Source: a virus
Lineage: Duplodnaviria; Caudoviricetes
Strand: one strand, 5' to 3'
Length of the DNA stretch: 35,982 nucleotides
IMG/VR virus record: IMGVR_UViG_3300012940_001461
Coordinates: 1 to 35,982 of that record
In this document: piece after piece, positions 1 to 35,982 of the stretch
Numbering within the stretch: position 1 is the first letter of the stretch
Layout of the letters: each line of letters starts with the position of its first letter
Position numbers and translations under genes: made by a program
The notes under the pieces: generated by a model
What the model saw: the letters and a program-made list of their open reading frames with translations, nothing else
Told to the model about the DNA's origin: nothing
Databases searched by the model: none

Positions 1-68
1 TTATTCCCGCACGCGCCGAGCCCCGCGAGCAGTATAATTGCAGCGATCATCAAGCAGAGCGTTCTCAT
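1..68 (-). CDS. Outer-membrane spanin (Rz1-like lipoprotein), 5' part only, runs off window
   Basis: Not in ORF track; ATG at 68 reads MRTLCLMIAAIILLAGLGACGN..., a signal peptide with lipobox LGAC, overlapping the 3' end of the Rz-like gene in another frame. Confidence 0.75.
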   Translation of the reverse strand, partial: MRTLCLMIAAIILLAGLGACGN

Positions 69-411
69 CGATCTTGGCTCCGGGGGCTGTGGATTGCTGT
101 TTTGATTTGGCGAGCTCAGCGGCGAGTTCATCGATCCGCGCAGCATCGTCCGTCGATTGCTCACGCAATCGGTCGATAACCTCCGCATCGCGGGCCGCAC
201 GATCTGAGATAATCTTGAGGTCGCGCTGCAGCGCCTCGATTTGCGCCTGCTTGGCTGCGGAATCGCACTTGGCTTCCGCGATCGACTTGCCATGCTCGAT
301 CAGACCAAAGGCACCGGCGACAATCAGCGCAGCGACGATGCCATAGAGGATCAGTGCGATCTTGCGGGCAGCGAACCAGGCGCCGACGGCAGCGAAAAAT
401 CCGGTGATCAT
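1..411 (-). CDS. Inner-membrane spanin (Rz-like)
   Basis: N-terminal TM helix then coiled-coil-like region; directly after endolysin; overlapping lipoprotein gene. Confidence 0.75.
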   Translation of the reverse strand: MITGFFAAVGAWFAARKIALILYGIVAALIVAGAFGLIEHGKSIAEAKCDSAAKQAQIEALQRDLKIISDRAARDAEVIDRLREQSTDDAARIDELAAELAKSKQQSTAPGAKIDENALLDDRCNYTARGARRVRE

Positions 412-893
412 CGTGCGCCCTCCAGACAGAGCTGACGCTCTTTCTCACGGCGGGCGACGAGGCCGCGCACCACCTGCCCGCCAGCGCGATTGAAAGCCGG
501 AAGCGCGTTGCAGGCGCCAACGATGTCGCCATCGTTGATCCGGCGCGCGACGCTCGAGCGACAGAAGCCGGCCGTGCCGATGTTGTATGTGAGCGATAGG
601 AATGCGACGTAGGGCTTTTCAGGGATCGAGTCCGGATCATCGAGGCAGGCCCGCATGCCCGCTTCGTGCTCGACCAGAGAGCCAATGAACATCCGGTCGC
701 ATTGATCCTTGCTGAAGCGCATGCCCGGCCGGATGCCTTTGGTTTCGCCATAACAGGCCGTCCAGACGCCGATCACGTCCTGATAGGCATAGAGGCGCAG
801 CCCCTCGAAATTGCCGATGAGCGCGATCGCCAGTGCTCCAGCACCCGCAACGGCACCCGCTGCCGCGCCGGTCTTTGTAAGACGCGTCTTCAT
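408..893 (-). CDS. Endolysin, GH24 lysozyme with probable SAR anchor
   Basis: E-x8-D-x5-T triad (FEGLRLYAYQDVIGVWT), YNIG and GLVARR motifs; Gly/Ala-rich weakly hydrophobic N-terminus; ATG 893 overlaps holin stop. Confidence 0.92.
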   Translation of the reverse strand: MKTRLTKTGAAAGAVAGAGALAIALIGNFEGLRLYAYQDVIGVWTACYGETKGIRPGMRFSKDQCDRMFIGSLVEHEAGMRACLDDPDSIPEKPYVAFLSLTYNIGTAGFCRSSVARRINDGDIVGACNALPAFNRAGGQVVRGLVARREKERQLCLEGAR

Positions 894-1114
894 TCTTTCT
901 GCTCGCTGACGTTTGGCTGATAGATGAAGCGCGCCCAAAAGGCGCCGGCGGAGGCGATGCCGGCGCAGATCAGGAAGGTCCAGGCCGGGATCGGCACGAT
1001 CTCTTTCAGGAGCGGCAGGCAGACCTCAGCGACGATGAAGATCATCGCCAGCACATTGAGGCGGACACTCCATGCGCGCTTCAGCACGGATCTGGCATTC
1101 GGGATCAGCCTCAT
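890..1114 (-). CDS. Putative holin (2 TM)
   Basis: MRLIPNARSVLKRAWSVRL..., two hydrophobic segments, charged C-terminus, immediately upstream of endolysin. Confidence 0.7.
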   Translation of the reverse strand: MRLIPNARSVLKRAWSVRLNVLAMIFIVAEVCLPLLKEIVPIPAWTFLICAGIASAGAFWARFIYQPNVSEQKE

Positions 1115-1757: not shown

Positions 1758-1936
1758 TAATTCACCTGTGAATTGTGTGATTGGCCGGACAGGTCAAAGC
1801 GGTCGGCAGTCCGCTGGTGTGCTCACGTTCGGTGCCAGGTGTTGTTTTGCCGGCCGTTGGTCTGATGCGCCATTCGGCGCTTTCCCGGTTGACCAATTCT
1901 TGTCCGCGCTGCAAATTTCTGAGCGGGAGGTCGGGC

Positions 1937-2557
1937 ATGGACAACAACAATATACAAAGCGTCGATGGAGAATTAACGAACAAGCCCACCATCACTGGAA
2001 CAGGGAATGCCGTGCGGGTGGGCCGCTACGCGAGAGTATCAGCTCCCATTCATATACACGGCAACAGCAACACGGTGGACATTGCCGAAGGGTGCTTCTT
2101 TGGAGGCTGGCTAGAGATCAGGGCTAATGGAAGCACTGTTCGGATCGGAAGATCATCAACCCTGAGCAGGGTTTTGATGCACATCCAGGAGGGCGGCGAC
2201 ATAGCTGTCGGCGAAGATTGCGCCCTCTCTACGGATATATTCATCTCCACCAGCGATATGCATCCCGCCTATGACATTCAAACAGGCGCGCGGATTAACG
2301 CCGCTGAATCCATAGTCATTGGCAACCATATTTGGGTCGGCACCAGAGCGATAATACTAAAGGGATCCAATATCGGTGACGGATCAATCATCGGTGCCGC
2401 CTCCATAGTTACAGGAGACATCCCCGCCAATGCTATGGCTGCTGGGTCCCCGGCCCGGGTTCGGCGCATGGGGGTTCGTTGGGACCGAAATTTTCCTCCG
2501 GAGCCGGCCGTCCAGCCTGCTCCCACGCCTGCCGCAGCCCCGTTAGCAGTAGGTTGA
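1937..2557 (+). CDS. Hexapeptide-repeat (left-handed beta-helix) O-acyltransferase, moron
   Basis: SDMH, IVIGNHIWVG, IGDGSIIGAASIVTGDIP, AAGSPAR motifs; GGGAGG before ATG 1937; opposite strand to late operon. Confidence 0.88.
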   Translation: MDNNNIQSVDGELTNKPTITGTGNAVRVGRYARVSAPIHIHGNSNTVDIAEGCFFGGWLEIRANGSTVRIGRSSTLSRVLMHIQEGGDIAVGEDCALSTDIFISTSDMHPAYDIQTGARINAAESIVIGNHIWVGTRAIILKGSNIGDGSIIGAASIVTGDIPANAMAAGSPARVRRMGVRWDRNFPPEPAVQPAPTPAAAPLAVG

Positions 2558-12397: not shown

Positions 12398-13516
12398 TTA
12401 GCTGGCGGTCGAGCTGGCGAAGAAGCCGGTGAGCACGCCATGGTCCTTGGGATCGGTGCGGTCATCCGCGCCGGTGCCGAAGGTCATCTTGTCGATGCCA
12501 TAGATGGCTTCGATGGCGATGCCCTTCTTGTCGCCGTAGTCGAAGGTCTGCTCCTTCGAGGTCCAGCGCTTCGCATAGGCCGCGCCGACTGCCTGAGCGC
12601 CAGTGAAGTAACAGGGCACAACAGTCCCCGCTGAATCGCCCAGGCCGGTCAGCGTCGAATACTCGTAGAGGTCATGGTCCTCCTTGATGATGACGCCGTT
12701 CCAGAGGAGATCGCCACCCTTGAAGAGACGGTTGTTCTCCATCTCGACCGAGACTTCACGCTGCGCCTGCCGCAGCGCCGTGTCCTTCTTCAGATCACGA
12801 AACGCCAGCGGATGGGCATACAGAACGAAGTAATGGCGGCCATTCGATTCAGCGCGAACCGGACGGATCTTCGGGTTTGCCTTGTTCAGAGCGATGAACT
12901 TCATCTCATCGATTGCGTCAATGGTCAGAAGCTCGGCTGATGTGCCGGCCGTAAGGGTTGCAAGACCAGCCGAAAGATCGGTCATGGCCGTATAGGCATT
13001 GTTGCCGAAGAACACGCGGTCGCTGTTGTCGACGAGCCACGCATCAAGGGCGGTCTGATTGCCGGCCGCGCCAACCGCAGCAGCGGTCATTTCGATGCCG
13101 TTCATGCGGCCAAGCGCACGCGTAACAAGGCGCTCGGTATCCTTCAGCGACCACTCCTTCAGCGTGGCCTTGCCGGCCTCACGAAGGGAAATCGCGGAAA
13201 ACTGCTCGTCGATTTCGGCAACACGCACGCCATTGCGGCGCTTGTTGACCGTAACCTCGCAGGAACGAGAGGCCATATCCTCTTCGTTTCCTTCCAGGAC
13301 ATCGCGGCCAGTCACCGCATCGTTGGTCAGCTTATTGACCAAGGCAAAGTTGATGCGATCGCCGGGCTTCTTGGTCAGGTTTTCCTTGACCTGAATGATG
13401 TTATTTTCCGACGTACCCATTTCGCCGGCATAACGGTTCTCGGTCAGGTACTCGACAAAGTACTGGCTATCCCACTGCTCTACAGTGAGGCCAGTTGCAA
13501 CGCGCGTATCAGACAT
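12398..13516 (-). CDS. Major capsid protein (N4-gp56/DUF4043-like)
   Basis: LTKKPGDRI, LEGNEE, HPLAFRDLK, GAQAVG, DYG, DHGV motifs. Confidence 0.88.
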   Translation of the reverse strand: MSDTRVATGLTVEQWDSQYFVEYLTENRYAGEMGTSENNIIQVKENLTKKPGDRINFALVNKLTNDAVTGRDVLEGNEEDMASRSCEVTVNKRRNGVRVAEIDEQFSAISLREAGKATLKEWSLKDTERLVTRALGRMNGIEMTAAAVGAAGNQTALDAWLVDNSDRVFFGNNAYTAMTDLSAGLATLTAGTSAELLTIDAIDEMKFIALNKANPKIRPVRAESNGRHYFVLYAHPLAFRDLKKDTALRQAQREVSVEMENNRLFKGGDLLWNGVIIKEDHDLYEYSTLTGLGDSAGTVVPCYFTGAQAVGAAYAKRWTSKEQTFDYGDKKGIAIEAIYGIDKMTFGTGADDRTDPKDHGVLTGFFASSTAS

Positions 13517-13517
13517 T

Positions 13518-13540
13518 GATGTCGTTCCTTCTGCGACATC
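13518..13540 (-). promoter_or_regulatory. Hairpin holding the MCP Shine-Dalgarno in its loop
   Basis: GATGTCG-CAGAAGGAA-CGACATC ends 1 nt before MCP ATG. Confidence 0.45.
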
Positions 13541-13551
13541 TTCCGCGCATT

Positions 13552-13575
13552 AAAAAACCGCCTCAAAGGGCGGCT
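13552..13575 (-). terminator. Putative intrinsic terminator between scaffold and MCP
   Basis: Minus strand AGCCGCCC-TTT-GAGGCGG-TTTTTT hairpin with T6. Confidence 0.6.
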
Positions 13576-14371
13576 ATCGCTTGAAGATGTCGTTGATTGT
13601 CGGTGGACCGGCCCACGCAGGACCGGAGCGATTGCCAACATTTCGGGCGCCTGCAAGGTTGCTCGGCATCACCGACGGTGCTGGCTGTTGCTGCTGCGGC
13701 TTGTTCGGATCGATCCCGTACTTTTCGAGAATGCGCGCCTCGATCTCGGCTTCCTTTGCAGCCGGGTCGAATGTTCGCTTCTCGTACCAATCCAACCCCA
13801 CTTTCATGGGATCAGGGGACGCCCTCATTTGCGCCGCAAGCGTTGCGATTTCAGGATCGTTGCTCGACATGGCGTCCTGAACATACTTTTCAAACGCCGA
13901 GACCTTCTCTGCTCCATACTGCTGAATTGCAGTCAGACGCAGGATCTGCGACTCAAGCGACATGAATTTCTGTTCGAGCGGATTTACTCGCTGATCGATA
14001 TGGTATCCGGTCGCAGCGCCTGGATTCTCCCACCAGTCCGGTGGGGCTTGTTGCGCCTGCTGTGGCTTGATCGTCTCAATGAGCTGCGCCATGCGGCGCT
14101 CCCATTGAGCATTGGTTTCCTGCAATTGCTTGCGGAAATCAGCCACTTCTTCAGTGTAACGCTTGACCTTCTGCCTTTCAGCGTGAAGCGCTTCATGCGG
14201 GACCATCTTCTGGCCCTGCGGCTGCGTTTCGCGCTCTCCACCTTCCGGCGGATTGCTTTCGGCCTGCCCGGAGACTTGCGTCTCCTGCGTTACCTGCTCC
14301 TGATTTGCTTCCGGCTGTTCGGGCACGGCTTCGCCGTTACCGGACAGGATATCGTCCAGTGATTTCGTCAT
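13574..14371 (-). CDS. Capsid scaffolding protein
   Basis: Between portal and MCP; acidic N-terminus, VPHEALHAERQK coiled coil, PSNLA...GP..I.DIF tail. Confidence 0.8.
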   Translation of the reverse strand: MTKSLDDILSGNGEAVPEQPEANQEQVTQETQVSGQAESNPPEGGERETQPQGQKMVPHEALHAERQKVKRYTEEVADFRKQLQETNAQWERRMAQLIETIKPQQAQQAPPDWWENPGAATGYHIDQRVNPLEQKFMSLESQILRLTAIQQYGAEKVSAFEKYVQDAMSSNDPEIATLAAQMRASPDPMKVGLDWYEKRTFDPAAKEAEIEARILEKYGIDPNKPQQQQPAPSVMPSNLAGARNVGNRSGPAWAGPPTINDIFKR

Positions 14372-14431
14372 GTCATCCTGTTAGTGTGTCTGGTCACATA
14401 CGCCCGAGACAGCGGCGGCCTGATCGCCCGA

Positions 14432-16450
14432 TTACCCGGCGGCGGCTTGCGGTCGAGCCTTAAATTGCTCTGCCCGCATTTTGCGATCCTCAGCGCGGTC
14501 ACGCGCCTCCTGCATCGCAATCTGTGGAGCCAACTCGGCCTCGCGCTGGACCTTGTATGCGTCCGCGCGCTTCTTTTCCGTGTCGGCGTTTGTGTTTTCA
14601 ATGTCGGCCATGGCCTGCATGTTCTGCAGATCAGCCGGCACCTGATATTCCATCTGTTGTGGCTGGCCTGGTTGGCCCATTGCAGCCATCGGTGCAATCC
14701 TCGCATCAGCGAGAGCTTTCTGCGCCTGCGCATTTTTGAGGACTGCGGATTGCTCTTTTTCTGCAACCTCAGCCTGTGCGCCACGCTGCTGAAGCTCTGC
14801 TTGTGGGTTCGGCTGGTTCAGCCTCTCCAAAAGCTTGTCCTTGTTCTTCAGGTTAGGCGCCGCCTCGATCAGAACATCGGTCGGGAATGTGCCGGGCTTG
14901 GCCTTCTCAAGCTCAATGATGGCTTCCCACTGCTCAAGGGCTGGCGTAACGGCATCCGGGGCATCGTTGATGATGATGTCGCAATCCAGTTCGGCTACGT
15001 TCGAAATATAGCCTGATATCTGCTGCGCCATCTGCGGATTGGTCTGCGCAATCATCTGCAACTGCTCGGGCGGCATGTTCATCACCACCCACTTCACATT
15101 TCTTTCGTCGTCCGTGACGCGGACCCATTTTTCCGCCGTCCAGAATTGACGAATGCGATACCAGACCGCGCGGAACACTCGCAGATCAAGATCGCGCAGA
15201 TTGTCCAAAAGCTCTCCAATTTCCATCATGCCACCCTGCTGGCTGGCGATAATGGCTTTACCGGACGCGGCGCTCGATCCTTGCGCCTTTTCGCCCATCA
15301 TTGTGGCGTTCGGGCCGCGAAGGTCTATTTCGTTCTTGGACTCCTGAAGGAGCTGGAATTGCGCCGTTGCAAGTTCGAGGTTTGTCTCGATCTTGATAGC
15401 GCCGTTGGCCATCGCTCCAGGATTGGACTTCGGCATGCCATCCGGCCGCATAACCTCCTTGCGATACGCCTCCGGATCGTCAATCGCCCCCTCTTCCCAG
15501 AAGATCTGGCGCGTGCTGAGCAGATGCAGCGCTTTGGATCGGCGCTTGTTCACCTCGTCCTGCGGCGAAATCATCTCCCGGACGATTCCGTACCGATTAT
15601 TATCTCGATCAACATAGCCGGATGCGAAAATCAGACCGCAATCGCTCTCGCCCTTGTCCGTGACATAAGGCGATGGGCCGGCTTTCAGAATCCCGCCCTT
15701 GGTGTACTCAGCGAAATACCATTGACCTCCGCGCTTCAGCCAAATCTGACAGATACGAATGCGCTTGCGCTTCTTGTCGGCCCACAATCTGAATTTCGGC
15801 TTGTCGTCGTATGTTTCGGACAGGTTGCCGCGCTCGGCCATCGTGGCATCGAGCTTGTCCTTGCCGTCCGGATACAGCAACACGGCATCGTCATAGTCCA
15901 TCCAAATGACGCTGCCGAGATAGCCGGCATCCGAGAAATCCGCCTCTGCGGAGTGCGGGTCCCAGAAGGCCCTATCCCAAGGAATGCGCTGGATGACGAC
16001 GCAATAGCCATCGTAACGCTGTTCAACGCGAACATCGAACCCGCCAGCGCCTTCGACAATCAGGTTGCGCCAAAGCGCAGACCGCTTGCGGTCGTATCGC
16101 TCGGCATCTGTGGCATATTTCAGAGCCTGAGAAGCACCGTCCGCATCGTTGGCGTGCTGCGGGGTTCGCGGGAATGCCTTCGGATCAATCCTACGCTCAA
16201 TCTCCAACCCGACCAGGAACTCGATCTTGCCTTTGATCCGATTGATCACAACAGGCGGTTGACCGCGCTTCTTGAGCGTCGCAACCTCTTCGTCGGAAAG
16301 CTGTTTGTTGTCTACATAGTCCCGGTCACGCTCGGAAAGCTTGCGCGACTCATACGTCGCTTCCTCAGCTTCCTCGAACATGCGAACGAGATCGGCCACG
16401 TCGAGTAAGCCGTCGCCGGCTTCGCTCTCGGCCTTTACAGCGTTTTCCAA
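14432..16450 (-). CDS. Portal protein (P22-like)
   Basis: RGQPPVVINRI, DPH..D.SDA.Y, YGIVREMISPQDEVNKRRSK, SGKAI motifs; TTG start approximate. Confidence 0.92.
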   Translation of the reverse strand: MENAVKAESEAGDGLLDVADLVRMFEEAEEATYESRKLSERDRDYVDNKQLSDEEVATLKKRGQPPVVINRIKGKIEFLVGLEIERRIDPKAFPRTPQHANDADGASQALKYATDAERYDRKRSALWRNLIVEGAGGFDVRVEQRYDGYCVVIQRIPWDRAFWDPHSAEADFSDAGYLGSVIWMDYDDAVLLYPDGKDKLDATMAERGNLSETYDDKPKFRLWADKKRKRIRICQIWLKRGGQWYFAEYTKGGILKAGPSPYVTDKGESDCGLIFASGYVDRDNNRYGIVREMISPQDEVNKRRSKALHLLSTRQIFWEEGAIDDPEAYRKEVMRPDGMPKSNPGAMANGAIKIETNLELATAQFQLLQESKNEIDLRGPNATMMGEKAQGSSAASGKAIIASQQGGMMEIGELLDNLRDLDLRVFRAVWYRIRQFWTAEKWVRVTDDERNVKWVVMNMPPEQLQMIAQTNPQMAQQISGYISNVAELDCDIIINDAPDAVTPALEQWEAIIELEKAKPGTFPTDVLIEAAPNLKNKDKLLERLNQPNPQAELQQRGAQAEVAEKEQSAVLKNAQAQKALADARIAPMAAMGQPGQPQQMEYQVPADLQNMQAMADIENTNADTEKKRADAYKVQREAELAPQIAMQEARDRAEDRKMRAEQFKARPQAAAG

Positions 16451-17907
16451 TTCAATGCGCCCTCATCGGCGAATGCTGCGTCCCAGCGGTCCCGCATTGG
16501 CTTTTCAGCCGGGCGCTGCTTGATCCCAGACACCATCTTGTCCAAGAGTTGGCCCACAAGACCCAGTGCGTCTACCTGGTCGTCATGCTTGCCGGCCGGG
16601 AAGCTCAATAGCTCAGATCTGAAAGCCGGGAACCACGGCGCAGCATGATCCACATAGAGGCCGTCAAGCTCCATGCGGCCACGAATGGACTGCGCCCGGA
16701 CGGCTTTATCGCCTCGCGTCGGGAACGGCTCACGCACGCAGTAGGCTTGCAATTCACGCTGACGCTTCTGAATGAACGGCCCAATGCCAGAGCGAATCTG
16801 CCCCTGCTCTTCCGCCCAGCTCATCGGCCGCCACTTTTTGACCAAGTGGCAGAATGCCTCGACCCACTCGTTTGACGAAGCCTGCTTGCGCCAAAGGTCC
16901 AGCAGATACATCCGGCCTTCAGGATCGATGCCGACAACCACGTGAACCGTGTAATCGCCGCCGTCCGCCGTGACCGCGTAATCGCTGGCTCCGTAGACCC
17001 TAAGCGTTTCCTTCGCTGGCGCCTGTTCGTATGGCCGCAGCCAGTCCGATTTGAAATAGTCGCCCTCTTCCGGGGCCGGCGCCTGCTGATACAGCGCCGA
17101 CCACATCATCGGCGTGGATTCTTTCTGGCGCTGCCTCAGATATGCGCCGTAATTGTACCCGCCCGGATCATCCCAGAGATATTCGCCCGGCTTACGGCCA
17201 AGCGGATCGCCTTCCATCGCAATGGCGGGGATACAAAGCACCCTAGCCTTCAGGATGCCTTTGGCGACCTGCTCAAGAACGCGACCGGCAATGTCCTCTT
17301 CATGCCAGCGCGTGTGCATGATCACGCGACGAGCGCCCGGTTTCAGACGGGCTGAAAAGTCATCGATGTACCAGTCCCACCGCTTCGACCGGACGGTTTC
17401 CGACCAAGCATCTTCACGAGAACCGAACGGATCATCGATCAGACCCAGATCAGCACGAAAGCCAGAAATGCCGACACCTGCGCCGACGCCGTAATACTCC
17501 CCGCCAGATGTCAGCGCCCACCGCGCTGCGGCTTGATTGCTGGTATCCGGCGTTACGCCAAGGATCAGTGCATTCGCTGCAATATCGTTTCTGACCTTGC
17601 GGCCCCAACGCTCAGCGAACTCAACCGAGTGCGTCGCTGCCAACACGTTGTGCGACGGGTTGACAGCCATGTACCAGGCCGGAAACAGGTGCGAAACATA
17701 GGTGGACTTCGCAGACCCAGGCGGAGCGAAAATCAGCAGATTGTCGTTCTCGCCCCTCGCGATAGCTTCAAGTTCAGCAATGATCAGCTTGTGATGCGCT
17801 GCGGGCTCAAAGCCCATCAACCTCGCGTATTCAGTTAAGCTGCTGCGGATCGATCGGCGCCTCAGCAGTTCCTTCGCTGCCTCCGACCGCGATACTTGCA
17901 AGTTCAT
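16435..17907 (-). CDS. terL: Phage terminase large subunit
   Basis: Walker A PPGSAKST, Walker B LIDDP, TRWHEED, ALYQQ.P, SDYA, HDDQVDA; start uncertain (17907 or 17928). Confidence 0.95.
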   Translation of the reverse strand: MNLQVSRSEAAKELLRRRSIRSSLTEYARLMGFEPAAHHKLIIAELEAIARGENDNLLIFAPPGSAKSTYVSHLFPAWYMAVNPSHNVLAATHSVEFAERWGRKVRNDIAANALILGVTPDTSNQAAARWALTSGGEYYGVGAGVGISGFRADLGLIDDPFGSREDAWSETVRSKRWDWYIDDFSARLKPGARRVIMHTRWHEEDIAGRVLEQVAKGILKARVLCIPAIAMEGDPLGRKPGEYLWDDPGGYNYGAYLRQRQKESTPMMWSALYQQAPAPEEGDYFKSDWLRPYEQAPAKETLRVYGASDYAVTADGGDYTVHVVVGIDPEGRMYLLDLWRKQASSNEWVEAFCHLVKKWRPMSWAEEQGQIRSGIGPFIQKRQRELQAYCVREPFPTRGDKAVRAQSIRGRMELDGLYVDHAAPWFPAFRSELLSFPAGKHDDQVDALGLVGQLLDKMVSGIKQRPAEKPMRDRWDAAFADEGALNWKTL

Positions 17908-18118
17908 CGTCTGCCAGATCTTTCGCAATCATTTTGCGAACGTTCATATCGACGGTCTGCGCTGGCTTGCCCCAGCCGCGATCCAGAAGCGCCGTAGCAG
18001 CAGAAACACGCGCAGCGGCAGGAGCTTCCTCCTGCATCATTACGCCGGCCAAAACCTTGATCGCCTTATCCGTATAGGATCGCGCCAAAGACCGGATATC
18101 TGTTGGAGCTTTCGCCAT
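17831..18118 (-). CDS. Putative terminase small subunit
   Basis: ARVSAATALLDRGWGKP motif; overlaps terL start. Confidence 0.7.
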   Translation of the reverse strand: MAKAPTDIRSLARSYTDKAIKVLAGVMMQEEAPAAARVSAATALLDRGWGKPAQTVDMNVRKMIAKDLADDELASIAVGGSEGTAEAPIDPQQLN

Positions 18119-24955: not shown

Positions 24956-25038
24956 GAAAGCATAATATGCATCAACGCATAACTTCTGCAAGCAATTTAT
25001 GCGTTGACGTATTTGCCGTAAAAAATGCACATACGCAT
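24950..25038. promoter_or_regulatory. oR-like operator cluster (14-bp ATGC-N6-GCAT)
   Basis: GTGCATGAAAGCAT 24950, ATGCATCAACGCAT 24967, ATGCGTTGACGTAT 24999, ATGCACATACGCAT 25025. Confidence 0.75.
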
Positions 25039-25047
25039 AAAAGGGGG

Positions 25048-25671
25048 ATGAGACATGACATCCCCAAAATTCTCCGCGCGCTGATGGAACTTGTCCCGGG
25101 CAAGCAGACCGGCCTCGCGCGCCGGCTCGGCGGCGGCATTACCCAACCGCAAGTCTCGCGGTGGTTGAAGGGAGTTGAGCCCGAAGTCGCAAATTACGAG
25201 CGGATAATAGGGCTTGCCCAAAATTTGGGGGTATTATCTGATACCCGTTCAGAGGACGTGGCCGCCACCCTCCCCGAGCCTGTCCGGTTCCGAACCGTTA
25301 AGCTGAAGGGATACGTTGGGGCCGGCTCAGAAGCCCATTTCTACAAGATCGCAGATGAGGATTTTGAGGAAGTGCCAGCCCCTCCAAACGCCACCGACAA
25401 GACCGTCGCCGTTGAGATTCGCGGCAAGTCCTGGGGGCCGTTTATGGATAGCTTCCGGGTCTATTACGACGACGTGCACTCCCCGATCGACCCGAGCATG
25501 TATGGCCGACCCTGCATTCTGGGCCTGGCCGATGACCGGATTCTGCTGAAAGTGCCATTTCAACAGCCGAACGGCCTGTTTCGGCTGGTTTCGAATTCAG
25601 ACGAGCCACCCATTGAAGATGCCATTATTGAATGGGCGGCGCTCGTAAAAAGTTTCATGCCGAAATCTTAA
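25048..25671 (+). CDS. cI: CI-like repressor (HTH + S24 autopeptidase)
   Basis: QTGLARRLG..ITQPQVSRW; VGAG cleavage site; RGKSW Ser and LLK Lys. Confidence 0.88.
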   Translation: MRHDIPKILRALMELVPGKQTGLARRLGGGITQPQVSRWLKGVEPEVANYERIIGLAQNLGVLSDTRSEDVAATLPEPVRFRTVKLKGYVGAGSEAHFYKIADEDFEEVPAPPNATDKTVAVEIRGKSWGPFMDSFRVYYDDVHSPIDPSMYGRPCILGLADDRILLKVPFQQPNGLFRLVSNSDEPPIEDAIIEWAALVKSFMPKS

Positions 25672-26496: not shown

Positions 26497-26629
26497 AATA
26501 TATTCCCGTGAAACGTTATTAACCAAACTGTGAAACATTAATTTTCACGTTTTAGGCTTGAACCGATTGCCGGCCCACACAGTTGTGTTACAAACGACGT
26601 ACAAGGCGACTACCTCATTGGAGATGGTC

Positions 26630-26896
26630 ATGGCACGGACAGCATACCTCAACGCGAGAATCGAGCCCGATCTAAAGGATGGAGCGGAAAAGATTTTTTC
26701 CGCCGTGGGCCTCTCTACGTCTGACGCTATCTCTCTCTTCTTCCGCCAGGTAGTCCTCCGGAAGGGGCTTCCTTTCGATGTCTGCATTCCCAATGCGGTG
26801 ACTGTCGAAGCTCTGAAGGAACTTGAGGCCGGCGGGGGAACCGTTCATCGCGGTTCTGCCCAGGAACTCTTTGACGAAATCTTGGCGGAAGATTAA
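26630..26896 (+). CDS. dinJ: RelB/DinJ-family antitoxin
   Basis: NARIEPDLKD.A..I...GLSTSDAI.LF......GLPF...PN..T. Confidence 0.92.
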   Translation: MARTAYLNARIEPDLKDGAEKIFSAVGLSTSDAISLFFRQVVLRKGLPFDVCIPNAVTVEALKELEAGGGTVHRGSAQELFDEILAED

Positions 26897-31298: not shown

Positions 31299-31649
31299 AT
31301 GAACTCACTTTCTTGGTTTCTTTACTTGGCGGGCCTTGTCGAGAACGTCGGCGTGACTTGCGGAATCTTTCTTGTGCTGGGCGGGCTGGTTTATGCGGGC
31401 TGGTTTATTGCGCACTACGGCATGGAAGAGGTCGAGAAAGCTCCGCCAGCGTGGCTTGGTCGCGCCCTGATTGCGGCGGTTTTCGTTGGAGTCCTCGCGC
31501 CATCCAAAAACACTATGTACGCCATAGCCGCATCAGAAGCTGGTGAGCGCCTGGTTGCTTCCAACACTGGGCAAGAGGTCTTGTCTGACGCGCAAAAGGC
31601 TCTCCAGCAATGGATCAAACGCCAGATCGAGCCGGAATCGAAGAAGTAG
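31299..31649 (+). CDS. Membrane protein
   Basis: MNSLSWFLYLA...PSKNTMYAIAASE; hydrophobic helices. Confidence 0.7.
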   Translation: MNSLSWFLYLAGLVENVGVTCGIFLVLGGLVYAGWFIAHYGMEEVEKAPPAWLGRALIAAVFVGVLAPSKNTMYAIAASEAGERLVASNTGQEVLSDAQKALQQWIKRQIEPESKK

Positions 31650-31683
31650 GCAGCTAATTCCAATTCAAAGATACGAGGCAGAT

Positions 31684-31983
31684 ATGTTTCGGGTGGGACA
31701 GAAGGTCGTGTGTGTTAGGCCGGACGCGTTAGGCATCCTTGTAGCCCGGCGCGTATACACCATAAGCCATTTCAGTTATGGCTATGACAACGGACCGCTC
31801 GCACTGCATTTGTGCGAAGTCAGCACCGGCCATTATCGCCCTCGCGGCCTTGGCGAGCGTGGATTCGCGCCAGACCGCTTCCGCCCCGTCGTCGAGAAGA
31901 AAACCGACACGGGTTTCGCGATTCTAGAAGAAATCCGGCGCCGCGAGACGATCGATGAGCGCCAGAAAATTCCAGCGCGATAA
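31684..31983 (+). CDS. Hypothetical phage protein (FRVGQKVVCV...RFRP)
   Basis: GAGG RBS; recurrent phage motif. Confidence 0.7.
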   Translation: MFRVGQKVVCVRPDALGILVARRVYTISHFSYGYDNGPLALHLCEVSTGHYRPRGLGERGFAPDRFRPVVEKKTDTGFAILEEIRRRETIDERQKIPAR

Positions 31984-31999
31984 TGGGGATTCTCCTTCC

Positions 32000-32320
32000 A
32001 TGAAACACACACCTGGGCCTTGGGGATTTGGCCGAACCTCCGATGATAGACGGATGGTCCTCGGCGACGGTGGCGAGGGTCGATATGTTTGCACGGTTCA
32101 GATTCACCAATCCCCGCGCCAGAACGGCTTGCTCGATGAGGCAGAGAGATTGGCCAACGCCCGCCTAATCGTAGCGGCACCTCTCATGCTCAAAGAGCTT
32201 GAACACATTTTGGCGCGCAGCCGCGCTAACTCACCGGACGAAGCGGAGCTGCGCAGGCAGATGGCGCTGATCGAAAGCGTCGCCCGTAACGCCATAGAAA
32301 ACGCGACAGGTAACGACTGA
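32000..32320 (+). CDS. Hypothetical phage protein (HTPGPW...NARLI.AAP)
   Basis: Recurrent phage motif. Confidence 0.72.
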   Translation: MKHTPGPWGFGRTSDDRRMVLGDGGEGRYVCTVQIHQSPRQNGLLDEAERLANARLIVAAPLMLKELEHILARSRANSPDEAELRRQMALIESVARNAIENATGND

Positions 32321-32340
32321 ATTCCTATCGAGGAAAAGAC

Positions 32341-32517
32341 ATGAAAATCAAGACGATTCAAACCCAAATCCGCAACGACATCTACGGCACTTTGGAGTGC
32401 GAAAGCTGTGGGTTTGAGCAGAAATTTGTCGGCTACGACGATGCCAATTACCGCAACAACGTCATTCCGCGCGTGAAGTGCCAATCGTGCGGCAAGGCCA
32501 CGCAAGAAGCCGCCTGA
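32341..32517 (+). CDS. 58-aa Zn-ribbon protein
   Basis: Not in ORF track; GAGGA RBS; CESC and CQSC. Confidence 0.72.
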   Translation: MKIKTIQTQIRNDIYGTLECESCGFEQKFVGYDDANYRNNVIPRVKCQSCGKATQEAA

Positions 32518-32546
32518 AACCCGGACGTTAACCGCCGTTGTACGCC

Positions 32547-32819
32547 ATGACCGACCTCGCGCCATACCTCACAAAAGCATCGCTAGCCGATGCTCTCCAA
32601 ATCTCAGAGACAACGGTCGATGAGATGGTGAAGCGTGGAGTTTTGCCGCGGCCGGTGAAGCTTTCCGCCGGCTGCGTGCGCTGGCGGTGGGCGAGCGTAG
32701 ACCAAGCGCTTGCCTCCATGGAGGAAGGACCGCAAAATTCGGTAAGTCAGAGTGAGCAAAGCGGAGTTCAACGTGCCATCCAAGCGGCGAAGGAGCGTGG
32801 GCGTGGTCGAGCTGCCTAA
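32547..32819 (+). CDS. xis: AlpA-family excisionase
   Basis: LA..L.ISETTV..MVKRG.LPRPVKL..G.VRW; overlaps int start. Confidence 0.85.
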   Translation: MTDLAPYLTKASLADALQISETTVDEMVKRGVLPRPVKLSAGCVRWRWASVDQALASMEEGPQNSVSQSEQSGVQRAIQAAKERGRGRAA

Positions 32820-33819
32820 AGGCGTTCACCGCGTCGTATCGCGGGGGCGAGAATATTTCTACTGGAGTCCGGATCGCGGCACAAAACGCGCGGCTAAGGC
32901 AATCCGCTTGCCAAGCGATCCCACAGACCCGAATTTCTGGATCGCTCTTCGGGCTGCTCAAGGCCAAGACGGGACACAAATTCTGACTGTCAATGACGTG
33001 ATCGATCGCTATGTCACGTCGCCGAAATTCACAAAGCTTACCAAGGGGACGCGCGATATGTACGCGAAGCCCCTGAAGATCCTGCGCGCCGGTTTTGGCG
33101 ACTGGAATGCATCGAAAATGCGCCCAAATCACCTCCGAGAGGTGATCGAAGGCATGGCCGATATGCCGGGCGCGGCCAACAACCTGCTGAGCGTTGCCCG
33201 CGCCTTTTCAGCATGGGGCGTTGCTCGCGATTATTTTTCGCAATCCTTCACTGACGGCGTGGAGGGATATGAGAAGTCTGGTGGCCACAAGCCTTGGACC
33301 GATAAACAGCTTGCGGCTGCGGAACAGAAACTCACCGGAATGGTCCGGCGCGGTTTCTTCCTGCTTCGCTACACCGGCCAGCGCGGGTCCGATGTCGTGC
33401 GCCTGGGAGAAACGTTCATCGATGATGGCGGCTTTCGTCTTGAGCAGCAGAAAACGGGACGCGAGATTTGGTGTCCGATTGATGACGCGCTGGCCGCCGA
33501 GATGGCAACATGGGAGCGTGTCCCCGGCCCTTATCTTCGACACTCGCGCGGCACATATAGCCGGAAGGTGCTTGACGTACATTTCGCTGAACAGCGTGAG
33601 AACATTCCGGAGCTTGCCGGCTGCACGCTTCACGGCTTGCGCGGCACTCGTGTCGTGGAATTGAGGCGCGCCGGACTGACGACGACACAGATTCAAGATC
33701 AGGTCGGCATGTCGCTTGCGATGATTGAGCGGTACTGCCGGTTTGCCGACAAGAAAGCCAGCGGCAAGGCGTCGGTCGTGAGTCTGAAAGAACGTCGGAG
33801 GCAAAATGGCGAAAATTGA
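32803..33819 (+). CDS. int: Tyrosine integrase
   Basis: TGQR, QQKTG, HGLR, IERY; the usual H/W position reads QVGM; AAGGAG RBS before GTG 32803. Confidence 0.93.
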   Translation: MVELPKGVHRVVSRGREYFYWSPDRGTKRAAKAIRLPSDPTDPNFWIALRAAQGQDGTQILTVNDVIDRYVTSPKFTKLTKGTRDMYAKPLKILRAGFGDWNASKMRPNHLREVIEGMADMPGAANNLLSVARAFSAWGVARDYFSQSFTDGVEGYEKSGGHKPWTDKQLAAAEQKLTGMVRRGFFLLRYTGQRGSDVVRLGETFIDDGGFRLEQQKTGREIWCPIDDALAAEMATWERVPGPYLRHSRGTYSRKVLDVHFAEQRENIPELAGCTLHGLRGTRVVELRRAGLTTTQIQDQVGMSLAMIERYCRFADKKASGKASVVSLKERRRQNGEN

Positions 33820-34252
33820 ACTAGTGGGCGGCCGCCACTCTGCGGAGATCGATGACTGTGACAATTGGGTTGCATCATATCGCTGGTATGAGCACCGGGT
33901 TAAGGGCTCATTGACGGTCTATGCGAAGGCATATGCTGCTGGCGATACACTCTACATGCACCGAATAATTATGAGGCCGATTCCAGATGGAATGATCGTC
34001 GATCATATCGATCGTAACGGGCTCAATAACCGGAAAGCGAACCTTCGTCTGTTAACGGCGAAGCAAAATCAGCACGCTTGGTTTCAGATGGCCGGGTGGG
34101 AGCACATACATCATGTCAAATCTAAAGGGCGCTCCTACTTCTATCACCGGCCCACTAAAACACGCCTGCCAGACGACCCCGATAGTGCAGAATTCCATGC
34201 CATGCTGCGGGATCTGAACAGCGCAGGAACGCAATCTTGGAAAACATTGTAA
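33806..34252 (+). CDS. HNH endonuclease with integrase-N-terminus-like C-terminal domain
   Basis: YMHRII...VDHIDRNGLNNRKANLR; C-terminus aligns by eye with int residues about 4-50. Confidence 0.88.
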   Translation: MAKIELVGGRHSAEIDDCDNWVASYRWYEHRVKGSLTVYAKAYAAGDTLYMHRIIMRPIPDGMIVDHIDRNGLNNRKANLRLLTAKQNQHAWFQMAGWEHIHHVKSKGRSYFYHRPTKTRLPDDPDSAEFHAMLRDLNSAGTQSWKTL

Positions 34253-35549
34253 AATTATCGGCAAAATATCCAATGAAATCAGAGGATGAGATGAAATCGC
34301 ACATCTCATCTTCCAGCGCCGCAAATACACCGGCATGCTTCACCCGCCCCTGCTCGTACAAAGCCGCGATCGGCTCCGCGCGCAGCCACTTGCCGCGAAG
34401 CGCGCGCACCGCAATCACCGGCACCGTGCTGTCAGCTTCGCGGATCACGCTGCGCACCATGTCGCCGCCCTGGTTCACTTCGACAACCAGCGCATCCGCC
34501 TCAAGCCGCCGCCACAGCGCGATCGCCTTGGCCGCCCAGCCCGCTGGCGACAGGCCGGACACTGTCTCGTCGGCAATGACGTAAATCGTGCCACTCTCGG
34601 TGCGTCCCGCCGCGACAAGCCCGCAGGCATCGGCGCCCTTTGACGCCGATGCGGGCGGATCGACGGCAACGACGATCCGCTGCAGGGACGGCGCTTCCGC
34701 GACGCGACAGCTTTCGATGCCGCTGCGCGACCACAGCGCATCCGGCCGATCGTCAACGATCTCGCCATCCAGTTCCTGCCGGCCGAGCCGCGTGCCGTCA
34801 TAGCGCTTCACCACCGTGTCGATGAAGGCCGGCGACAGATGATACGCATTCGCCCGCGTCGCCGCGCGTGTCACCGCGCTCGTCGGGTCGACCATCAATC
34901 GCTTGAGCAACGCAATCGGCCGCGGCGTGGTGGTGATCACCTGCCGCGGCCGAGCGCCAAGGCGCAGTCCGAATTGCAGCATGTCAAAGGTTGCTTCGGC
35001 ATGACGCCACTTGGCCAGTTCATCCACCCATGCGGCGGAGAATTGCGGGCCGCGCAGGCTTTCCGGATCTTCCGCCGAAAAGGCCTGCGCGATCGCTCCG
35101 TTCGTCCATTCGAGTCTCCGGCGCGTTGGCGACCAGATTGGCCGTGCAGCGCGCGGATGCACGGCCAGAAGACCGGACACGCCTTCGATCATCACCTCGC
35201 GTGTTTCATGTTCGGTCTCGCCGACAAGCGCGATGCGTCGCTCGCTTTCGCCATCCTGCTTCGGCGCATTGGCAAGGGTCTTGATCCATTCTGCGCCGGC
35301 GCGTGTCTTGCCCGCGCCACGTCCGCCGATCAAAAGCCATGTTGTCCATGGCTCGCCATTGTTGCCGACAGCGGGCGCGAGCTGATGTGCATGCGCGAAT
35401 AGTCCGAAACGCGGCTTCAATCGACGGTGCTGATCCTTCGTCAGCCGGGTGACGAATTCATTCCGAATGTCCTCTGGCCATTGCTGCCAGTCGTTCCGTA
35501 AGTTCGCGACGGAGCTCGTCGATGTCTTCCGGGATCTGGTCGTAGTCAT
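34155..35549 (-). pseudogene. GTA-type terminase large subunit, C-terminally interrupted by prophage
   Basis: GGRGAGKTRAGAEW, LRGPQF...W.DELAKW, QFGLRLG, TTTPRP, TRLGRQELDG, VVAVDPP, EVNQGG, GKWLRAEP..ALYEQG, LEDEMCDF, then 45 unrelated aa; expected SPDRxDA motif absent. Confidence 0.85.
34282..34313. other. Probable prophage attachment junction (att core)
   Basis: GAGGATGAGATG-AAATCGCA-CATCTCATCTTC: 12-bp arms (11/12 inverted match, inner 9 perfect) around an 8-bp spacer, at the point where terminase homology ends. Confidence 0.75.
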
Positions 35550-35982
35550 GATCGTCCGCGGACACTTTCTCTTTCTGCGTCGCCTTCGGTTTTCCTTGTG
35601 CAGGCTTGTCCTGCGCATCGATAGCGGCGAGCGATTGCATCGTCTTCGCCAGCACCGCGAGGGTTCGCGCATTGCGCTCGCTCTCGCCTGGTTGCTGCTG
35701 CGTATCGGCGAGCCGCCTTTCGATCGCGACCACCTGTCGTTCCGCTGCGCGCATCATCCGCCCGGCAAGTCCGGCACGTTTCTTCGCCGGGCTGCTCAGC
35801 TTTCTCGGCACACGCCTGGTAATTGGCGGCAACAGTCTCTGGCCGTTGATCTTCGGGCCGCCATCAAGCCAGTAATACAGCCCCGATTCACCGAACCCGG
35901 TCTGCGCTTTGATGGCGCGGATCGTTGCACCGTCTTTGTACATCTGCCGCGCACACAGCGCGTTTTCGGAGATGTCGGTCAT
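35458..35982 (-). CDS. GTA-cluster first gene, putative small terminase (N-terminal HTH)
   Basis: ERNARTLAVLAKT and PEDIDELRRELTERL; overlaps terminase start as in RcGTA-like clusters. Confidence 0.65.
   Translation of the reverse strand: MTDISENALCARQMYKDGATIRAIKAQTGFGESGLYYWLDGGPKINGQRLLPPITRRVPRKLSSPAKKRAGLAGRMMRAAERQVVAIERRLADTQQQPGESERNARTLAVLAKTMQSLAAIDAQDKPAQGKPKATQKEKVSADDHDYDQIPEDIDELRRELTERLAAMARGHSE

Follow-up and report, generated by a model that had tools for sequence, protein, structure and literature searches.

What becomes of a host's gene transfer agent (GTA) when a temperate phage integrates inside its terminase gene? We addressed this question with a 35,982-nt stretch of viral DNA (the window), which is part of a 63,301-nt metagenome contig (L108) whose left end lies within lysis genes. 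The reading that we favour as the probable one is that the phage occupies a 7-bp core within the large terminase gene (terL) of a host GTA and brings no replacement end, so that it likely silences the GTA during lysogeny. The gene-disrupting attachment site within the GTA terminase is real and recurrent, and it is apparently unpublished.

At the right end of the window, an ORF on the minus strand (34155-35672) encodes a large terminase (TerL) with a match to Pfam Terminase_6N (E 2.4e-30). A sequence-only reading of this DNA had described a terminase that reads normally to LEDEMCDF and then continues as 45 unrelated residues; this description is exact, and the last part of the added stretch is antisense to the HNH gene (Table 1). 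The gene is also, as had been claimed, separate from the phage's own TerL gene. The Terminase_6C match covers model positions 2-132 of 155 in the window and 2-154 in the intact relatives P0131 and P0121, and intact relatives carry 37 further residues past the cut, through SPDRxDA. Among the 120 nearest proteins, 117 (116 counted by pattern and one by eye) run on as G.DGLS.GRSPDR.DA.VWA, which is the continuation that had been predicted for an RcGTA-like terminase, and the remaining three end at the same codon as the window TerL. With the SPDRxDA end in 117 of these 120 proteins, the ISSSDF... tail of the window is not one that prophage-free relatives share. The nearest named protein is P0131 from Pseudorhodoplanes sinuspersici (90% identity), and positions 34293-35982 are 78% identical in DNA to genome G148. 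The 5' part of terL keeps 141 of the 141 invariant residues that precede the cut, while the lost stretch comprises a helix (residues 421-435) and 13 invariant residues, including D421 and D424.

Of the small and large terminase pair that had been proposed, the large member stands on its Pfam match. The call for the small member rests on position and synteny; this ORF gave no Pfam or PHROG match, and only HTH-type look-alikes scoring under 0.9. Its 174-aa product has a possible N-terminal HTH, whereas the TerS of RcGTA has 107 aa and is said to have no DNA-binding domain. Another TerL, P0247, is broken earlier, at another place.

Table 1. Features of the window that bear on the insertion, with strand and basis
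Feature	Position	Strand	Basis or remark
Host RcGTA-type large terminase, 5' part, intact to ...LEDEMCDF	34293..35549	-	start codon near 35549 inferred
Read-through of 45 residues from phage DNA, without terminase similarity	34155..34292	-	
Likely small terminase of the GTA (174-aa ORF preceding terL)	35458..35982	-	position and synteny with G148
Phage's own large terminase	16435..17928	-	Pfam search
Phage capsid (PF13252) and P22-like portal (PF16510) genes	12398..16450	-	Pfam
Lysis genes: lysozyme (PF00959), spanin-like ORF (inferred)	1..938	-	Pfam
Tyrosine integrase	32752..33819	+	phrog_1, E 1.5e-27; 517 homologues
Likely excisionase (HTH_17, below cut-off)	32544..32819	+	conserved upstream of related integrases
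HNH endonuclease with integrase-N-terminal-like segment	33806..34252	+	PF13392
Crossover core TGTGCGA, 7 bp, codons M-C-D	34297..34303	-	smallest run common to both junctions, 11/11 mapped elements
Core-flanking inverted repeats, likely integrase core-binding sites	34282..34313	.	12-nt arms, 11/12 paired
TGTAAAA motif, likely arm-type integrase site (role inferred)	34246..34256	+	same motif, often doubled, after related integrases

The temperate phage in the window encodes a P22-like portal, a capsid, its own TerL, a primase, a helicase, ERF/YqaJ recombination genes and a lysozyme. The replication, head and lysis genes are all open frames, with virion and lysis functions not lost, and by its gene content the phage looks lysis-competent. 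An overlapping contig (L107) holds 4,629 nt of additional phage DNA to the left of the window edge, which makes the prophage longer than 38.9 kb and places its far junction beyond the contig. The sequence-only reading had expected the missing 3' end of terL past the left edge; L107 is phage DNA with no terL remnant, but a candidate far-junction contig is present in the likely source run. The left end of the prophage was not found in the viral contigs. The site is also a trap for annotation, in that prophage callers count host GTA genes as part of the provirus; this happened in the window. Two other genes of the window may be mentioned here: an ORF resembling hexapeptide-repeat acetyltransferases (1781-2557, plus strand), which lies opposite the tail genes, and a RelB antitoxin gene (26558-26896, plus strand).

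We found that the recombination module is laid out as expected of a gene-disrupting attB: the core adjoins the integrase, there is no replacement end, and the empty site is intact in relatives. In 11 genomes with both ends of the element on one contig, each end carries TGTG(C/T)GA in register with the M-C-D codons; the run shared by the two junctions is 7 nt in G004 and at least 8 nt in the other mapped elements. A variant core with Leu for Met occurs in three other loci. Because the core is duplicated in register at both ends, precise excision would restore the reading frame, as had been claimed, and the accompanying claim that the phage side supplies no replacement end extends to all 34 terL-site loci, none of which restores the gene. 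Inverted repeats as strong as the pair that flanks the core number two in the whole window, that pair included; the other (24974-25005), also of 12 nt, lies at the start of a repressor-like ORF (24967-25671) and is a possible operator. A scan for promoters and terminators gave no excess over shuffled sequences. In one contig (L059:6694-6800) the core TGTGCGA is flanked on neither side by terL and lies beside an integrase that is sister to that of L008; this is likely a free attP form. The HNH protein matches integrase residues 6-56 with its residues 99-141 (probability 93%), and this fusion of an HNH domain with an integrase N-terminal (arm-binding-like) segment lies between the integrase and the att site. 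One second protein of the same layout was found (P0242, 57%). The fusion could compete for, or nick, the att arms.

The junction is covered by a contig of the likely source run, which spans 31500-34945 with 0 differences from the window; since this assembly is independent, the junction is not an assembly artefact. In the same run and in three other soil runs, the terL contigs of relatives part from the window exactly at 34293 and continue as an intact gene. The exact junction pattern had 0 matches in the viral contigs. A 5,562-nt contig of the source run, with a depth of 34.5 (compared with about 36), aligns to the terL end of G148 from the first core base onwards and not before it; 4,597 other letters precede the aligned part. 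This contig, which is known by its alignment range and depth alone, likely carries the far junction of this lysogen.

We then asked whether the interrupted cluster is of the RcGTA type, as had been proposed; both the marker residues of TerL and the clusters behind the terL remnant in relatives bear this out. Pro and Cys at RcGTA TerL positions 282 and 292 have been reported as GTA markers (Esterman et al., PMC7947584). The window TerL reads VDPP...DACG, with P and C ten residues apart (RcGTA numbering inferred). Phage TerLs have A and T at these positions in three of five cases, as PMC7947584 reports for viral group 1, and one freshwater phage TerL (L117) also has the P/C marker residues. Behind the remnant in G002 we found a portal, protease, capsid, TIGR02215 head-tail connector, tail tube and short tape measure, then TIGR02217/8/9 proteins (distal tail, hub, NlpC/P60) and a megatron (NF048004, over cut-off). 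The same GTA head-tail cluster is present in part in G003-G005 and G148, with NF058675 below cut-off. The megatron is full-length, stop-free and over cut-off in all four lysogens tested and in G148; in the latter, whose TerL is 90% identical to that of the window, the best PDB matches of the capsid and megatron are RcGTA chains. The relatives thus share with the RcGTA and CcGTA clusters the order terS-terL-portal-protease-capsid-tail-megatron and the TerL markers (PMC6854486, PMC7947584, PMC9632790, PMC11150451), although these Hyphomicrobiales clusters are known from their genes alone. The separation of the first genes of the cluster from portal and capsid, which the sequence-only reading had drawn, holds in relatives; in this host it is likely, by way of the 5,562-nt contig.

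Is this insertion an isolated event? We fetched 84 loci with related integrases and used an intact TerL as a probe. Of these, 34 lie at this terL codon, and after removal of five duplicates they represent 29 distinct elements across the Hyphomicrobiales, with hosts in Microbaculum, Ancylobacter, Xanthobacter, Bosea, Rhodopseudomonas, Methylobacterium, Chelativorans, Mesorhizobium, Pararhizobium, Shinella and Methylocystis. The integrase faces the 5' part of terL in ten loci, as in the window, and the orientation is opposite in 24, where the integrase is followed by the 3' terL remnant and then mostly by the GTA portal, protease and capsid. Where one contig covers both junctions (11 genomes), an RcGTA-type cluster follows the 3' remnant, and in one of them it is mapped in full; a pattern search for the remnant was negative in three of nine orientation-A genomes (fragmented assemblies). 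The survey of homologous integrases that the sequence-only reading had suggested thus shows recurrent use of terL, and it also places sister integrases at other genes. One locus, L020 (G313), is an opposite-orientation element within a Methylobacterium branch that is otherwise window-like, which indicates that orientation flipped more than once. Two further genomes drew our attention: G573 has two core-pattern matches 1.1 kb apart (C4:474500-475641), and G100 has two TerL copies 15.7 kb apart (C90).

The occupants of the site are diverse. G002 and G004 harbour phages (59.6 and 64.7 kb, respectively) whose portals and capsids are not those of the window; both have the integrase in common with it, and G002 adds only weak TerL and NusG matches. 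In nine small, fully mapped elements (9.9-18.3 kb) the integrase points the same way as the GTA operon. Among the seven that were annotated, those of G309 and G312 (~10 kb) encode an integrase, an excisionase-like gene, HNH, terminase, capsid, portal and head closure proteins, with a protease match in G309 and an adaptor match in G312; neither gave a match to tail genes, and both sit immediately before the tail genes of the GTA. In G314 and G316 the element has tape-measure or tail genes in addition; those of G315 and G317, which are partial, are also listed with such genes, and that of G318 has no recognised virion gene. Since unrelated phages and small elements use one site, the site goes with the integrase and is not tied to one type of phage. 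We note capsid-forming, tail-less, satellite-like elements of ~10 kb in the GTA operon at L119 (G309), L122 (G312), L120 and L121, all oriented like the operon and placed ahead of its tail genes. The prophage in the GTA terL of G004 has its own TerL (C16:31170-31798), which is 44% identical to the GTA one, and second megatron copies lie outside the GTA cluster in G309 (C17:106878-110867) and G148 (C1:631516-635952). Beside four elements the GTA genes are damaged: a deletion from capsid to megatron (L034:13965-15418), a split portal (L021:9403-10311), loss of terL codons about 268-402 (L069:554-6707) and a likely portal frameshift (L071:2841-3949).

How might the insertion act on the GTA? The temperate phage sits at a 7-bp core of conserved codons near the end of terL, and we propose that the loss of a helix starting at the third catalytic-type Asp would abolish DNA cutting. 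The lost helix is confidently modelled, and a fold search matches terminase and RuvC nucleases; the TerL model as a whole has a mean pLDDT of 64 with a poor ATPase part, and sequence and profile searches of TerL against the PDB gave no useful match. In the G20c terminase, D429 is indispensable (PMC5389553). As D421, the residue equated with it by motif and position, goes with the lost helix, cutting by the terminase is likely dead, in agreement with the earlier claim that the last acidic residue of the nuclease site is missing. The insertion would also be polar on the portal, capsid and tail genes if a single upstream promoter drives the cluster, as in Caulobacter, where the promoter lies upstream of the terminase and anti-termination operates (PMC11150451). 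In Caulobacter, deletion of the terminase abolishes the GTA benefit (PMC9632790), and GTA producers die, probably from genome digestion (PMC13236601). By analogy, the insertion would be polar and the lysogen spared this death; a likely bonus would be that, during a GTA burst, the chromosome of the lysogen and the prophage in it would escape fragmentation. The site itself likely persists as a conserved, single-copy and dispensable one. Excision would restore the frame, likely with lytic induction or rare curing and not as a host-controlled switch. A dominant-negative TerL, which the sequence-only reading had also raised, is rejected on the grounds of the single terL copy and the likely polar insertion: eight of the nine lysogen genomes searched have one terL copy each (the extra copy in the ninth is the prophage's own gene), and the procapsid genes would lose their promoter as well. 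A phage-versus-GTA conflict is plausible.

A broader form of this conflict is that the site is contested, with phages blocking a suicidal GTA and satellites of 10-18 kb riding its anti-terminated transcript, excising and stealing its tails. We regard this as possible but doubtful; if it were true, the satellites would be the first parasites of a gene transfer agent.

We hold it rather unlikely that the site is a neutral safe harbour, that is, a conserved quasi-palindrome in a dispensable gene of a GTA that makes few or no particles, so that its loss would be neutral to the phage. This would fit the sister integrases at unrelated housekeeping sites: the non-terL sites comprise ntrC-like, lexA, radical-SAM/TRAM, GMC oxidoreductase, 2-hydroxyacid dehydrogenase and DUF488-linked genes (sister integrases elsewhere are L007, L032, L030, L033, L015, L013, L048, L012, L019, L070, L028, L132 and L133). 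It would also fit the GTA lesions in L021, L034, L069 and L071 and the core pattern itself, which is common (130 of 401 sampled Hyphomicrobiales genomes, chance matches included). Against it, 32 of the 47 integrase-clade rows map to the terL core, with 15 elsewhere or unplaced, and terL-site rows occur in both main branches of a fast tree, with other sites nested among them. The integrase trees were a quick one and a FastTree, built without a clade test; the second left out 25 of 75 rows (6 duplicates, 6 long or distant and 13 outgroup). The GTA genes are, moreover, intact in most lysogens, and no attP restores the gene, though restoration is the rule for gene-targeting integrases (PMC10111431). 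Five of the 401 sampled genomes carry the integrase, three at terL (one being the centre of the sample) and two not, and occupancy of the site is low, at about 1-3%; a family-level TerL survey (at least 173 of 301 genomes) does not enter this figure. Given the clade rows off terL and the two of five carriers elsewhere, a benefit from the GTA is not needed to explain the integrase family. Insertion beside lexA and ntrC could be regulatory.

Gene-disrupting prophages with regulated gene integrity, or active lysogeny, are known from comK, mutL and the sigK skin element. As here, those elements integrate within a host ORF without restoring it, and excision regenerates the gene. There, however, excision is host-controlled and occurs in living cells, mostly with lysis suppressed or lost, whereas the phage of the window looks capable of lysis. 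The sequence-only reading had proposed such a reversible switch, in which the prophage would leave on a host signal, turn the GTA on and re-integrate; we consider this improbable. The frame that excision would regain, the intact integrase and xis-like gene, the attP-type form in the family (L059) and the full set of invariant residues in the 5' part of terL would all suit it, the last of these also being what a recent arrival would show. Yet we saw no sign of excision without lysis. The phage retains genes for primase, helicase, terminase, portal, capsid and lysozyme. In the likely source run the depth is flat at the junction (phage side 36.3, host side 35.9), with no hint of induction, and the contigs of that run, in which rare variants are lost, include no empty allele of the strain; these two observations are compatible with either outcome. 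Moreover, the occupants are rare and differ wholly from host to host, which sets them apart from a fixed regulatory element, and four of them have damaged GTA genes beside them (a count without a background rate). As GTA producers die anyway, re-integration would be pointless.

It is no more probable that the site arose in satellites that parasitise the GTA, being transcribed and excised with it and borrowing its tails, and that full phages took up the integrase later. The nine small elements with a co-oriented integrase point in this direction, as do the tail-less elements of G309 and G312, whose position directly upstream of the GTA tail genes is the layout of a helper-embedded satellite. 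But G314 to G317 have tape-measure or tail genes, G318 lacks a recognised virion gene, and the tree does not show satellites as ancestral. The proposal is also silent on function here, where a self-sufficient phage carries its integrase antisense to GTA transcription. That the junction is an artefact, or that the terminase belongs to an ordinary second prophage, is very hard to credit: the window contig does end short of the far junction and L117 has GTA-type marker residues, but an independent assembly covers the junction, the clusters of relatives are RcGTA-type, and TerL has a best phage-collection match of 61% compared with 90% for chromosomal relatives.

We return to the reading that we prefer, a phage in the GTA terL, and to its closest known parallels. 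Capsid-forming PICIs resemble the G309 and G312 elements in size (~10 kb), in encoding integrase, an excisionase-like protein, HNH, terminase, capsid, portal and head closure, and in the lack of a tail match, but these two elements are embedded in a GTA operon and have an integrase of another clade; the window phage falls outside this comparison. A small satellite is defined by having no full virion set, and this is true of the G309 and G312 elements and not of the window phage. Helper-embedded PICIs break late genes of lambdoid prophages (Tommasini, Mageeney & Williams 2023, PMC10111431). Like the terL-site integrases, they insert in phage-type late genes and break the frame, with one site in a terminase; as in the elements described here, their attP holds no replacement, and the small elements are likewise co-oriented with the target operon. 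The targets differ, being lambdoid helper prophages of gamma-proteobacteria in the one case and a domesticated, vertically kept GTA cluster in the other, and in the GTA case elements enter at a single codon in either orientation, with full phages among them. The window element in particular, unlike a helper-embedded PICI, exceeds 38.9 kb, has its own terminase, portal, capsid and lysis genes, and has an integrase antisense to the target. In the main text of PMC10111431, neither 'GTA' nor 'Alphaproteobacteria' appears, and the terL site is not mentioned in that of PMC10111431, PMC13626063, PMC9836097 or PMC11080155. Full-text searches showed no paper on integration into a GTA terminase; subscription papers and the supplements of island surveys may list the site.

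The integrase and its attB are a candidate integration tool. The satellites could be the first elements known to exploit a GTA. The finding touches on the questions of why alphaproteobacteria keep GTA clusters and whether those of the Hyphomicrobiales work. Natural, precise and curable terL knock-outs exist in Ancylobacter polymorphus DSM 2457, Xanthobacter sp. V3C-3, Rhodopseudomonas palustris XCP, Bosea vaviloviae SD260 and Chelativorans intermedius LMG 28482, and they make both GTA function and phage-GTA conflict directly testable.
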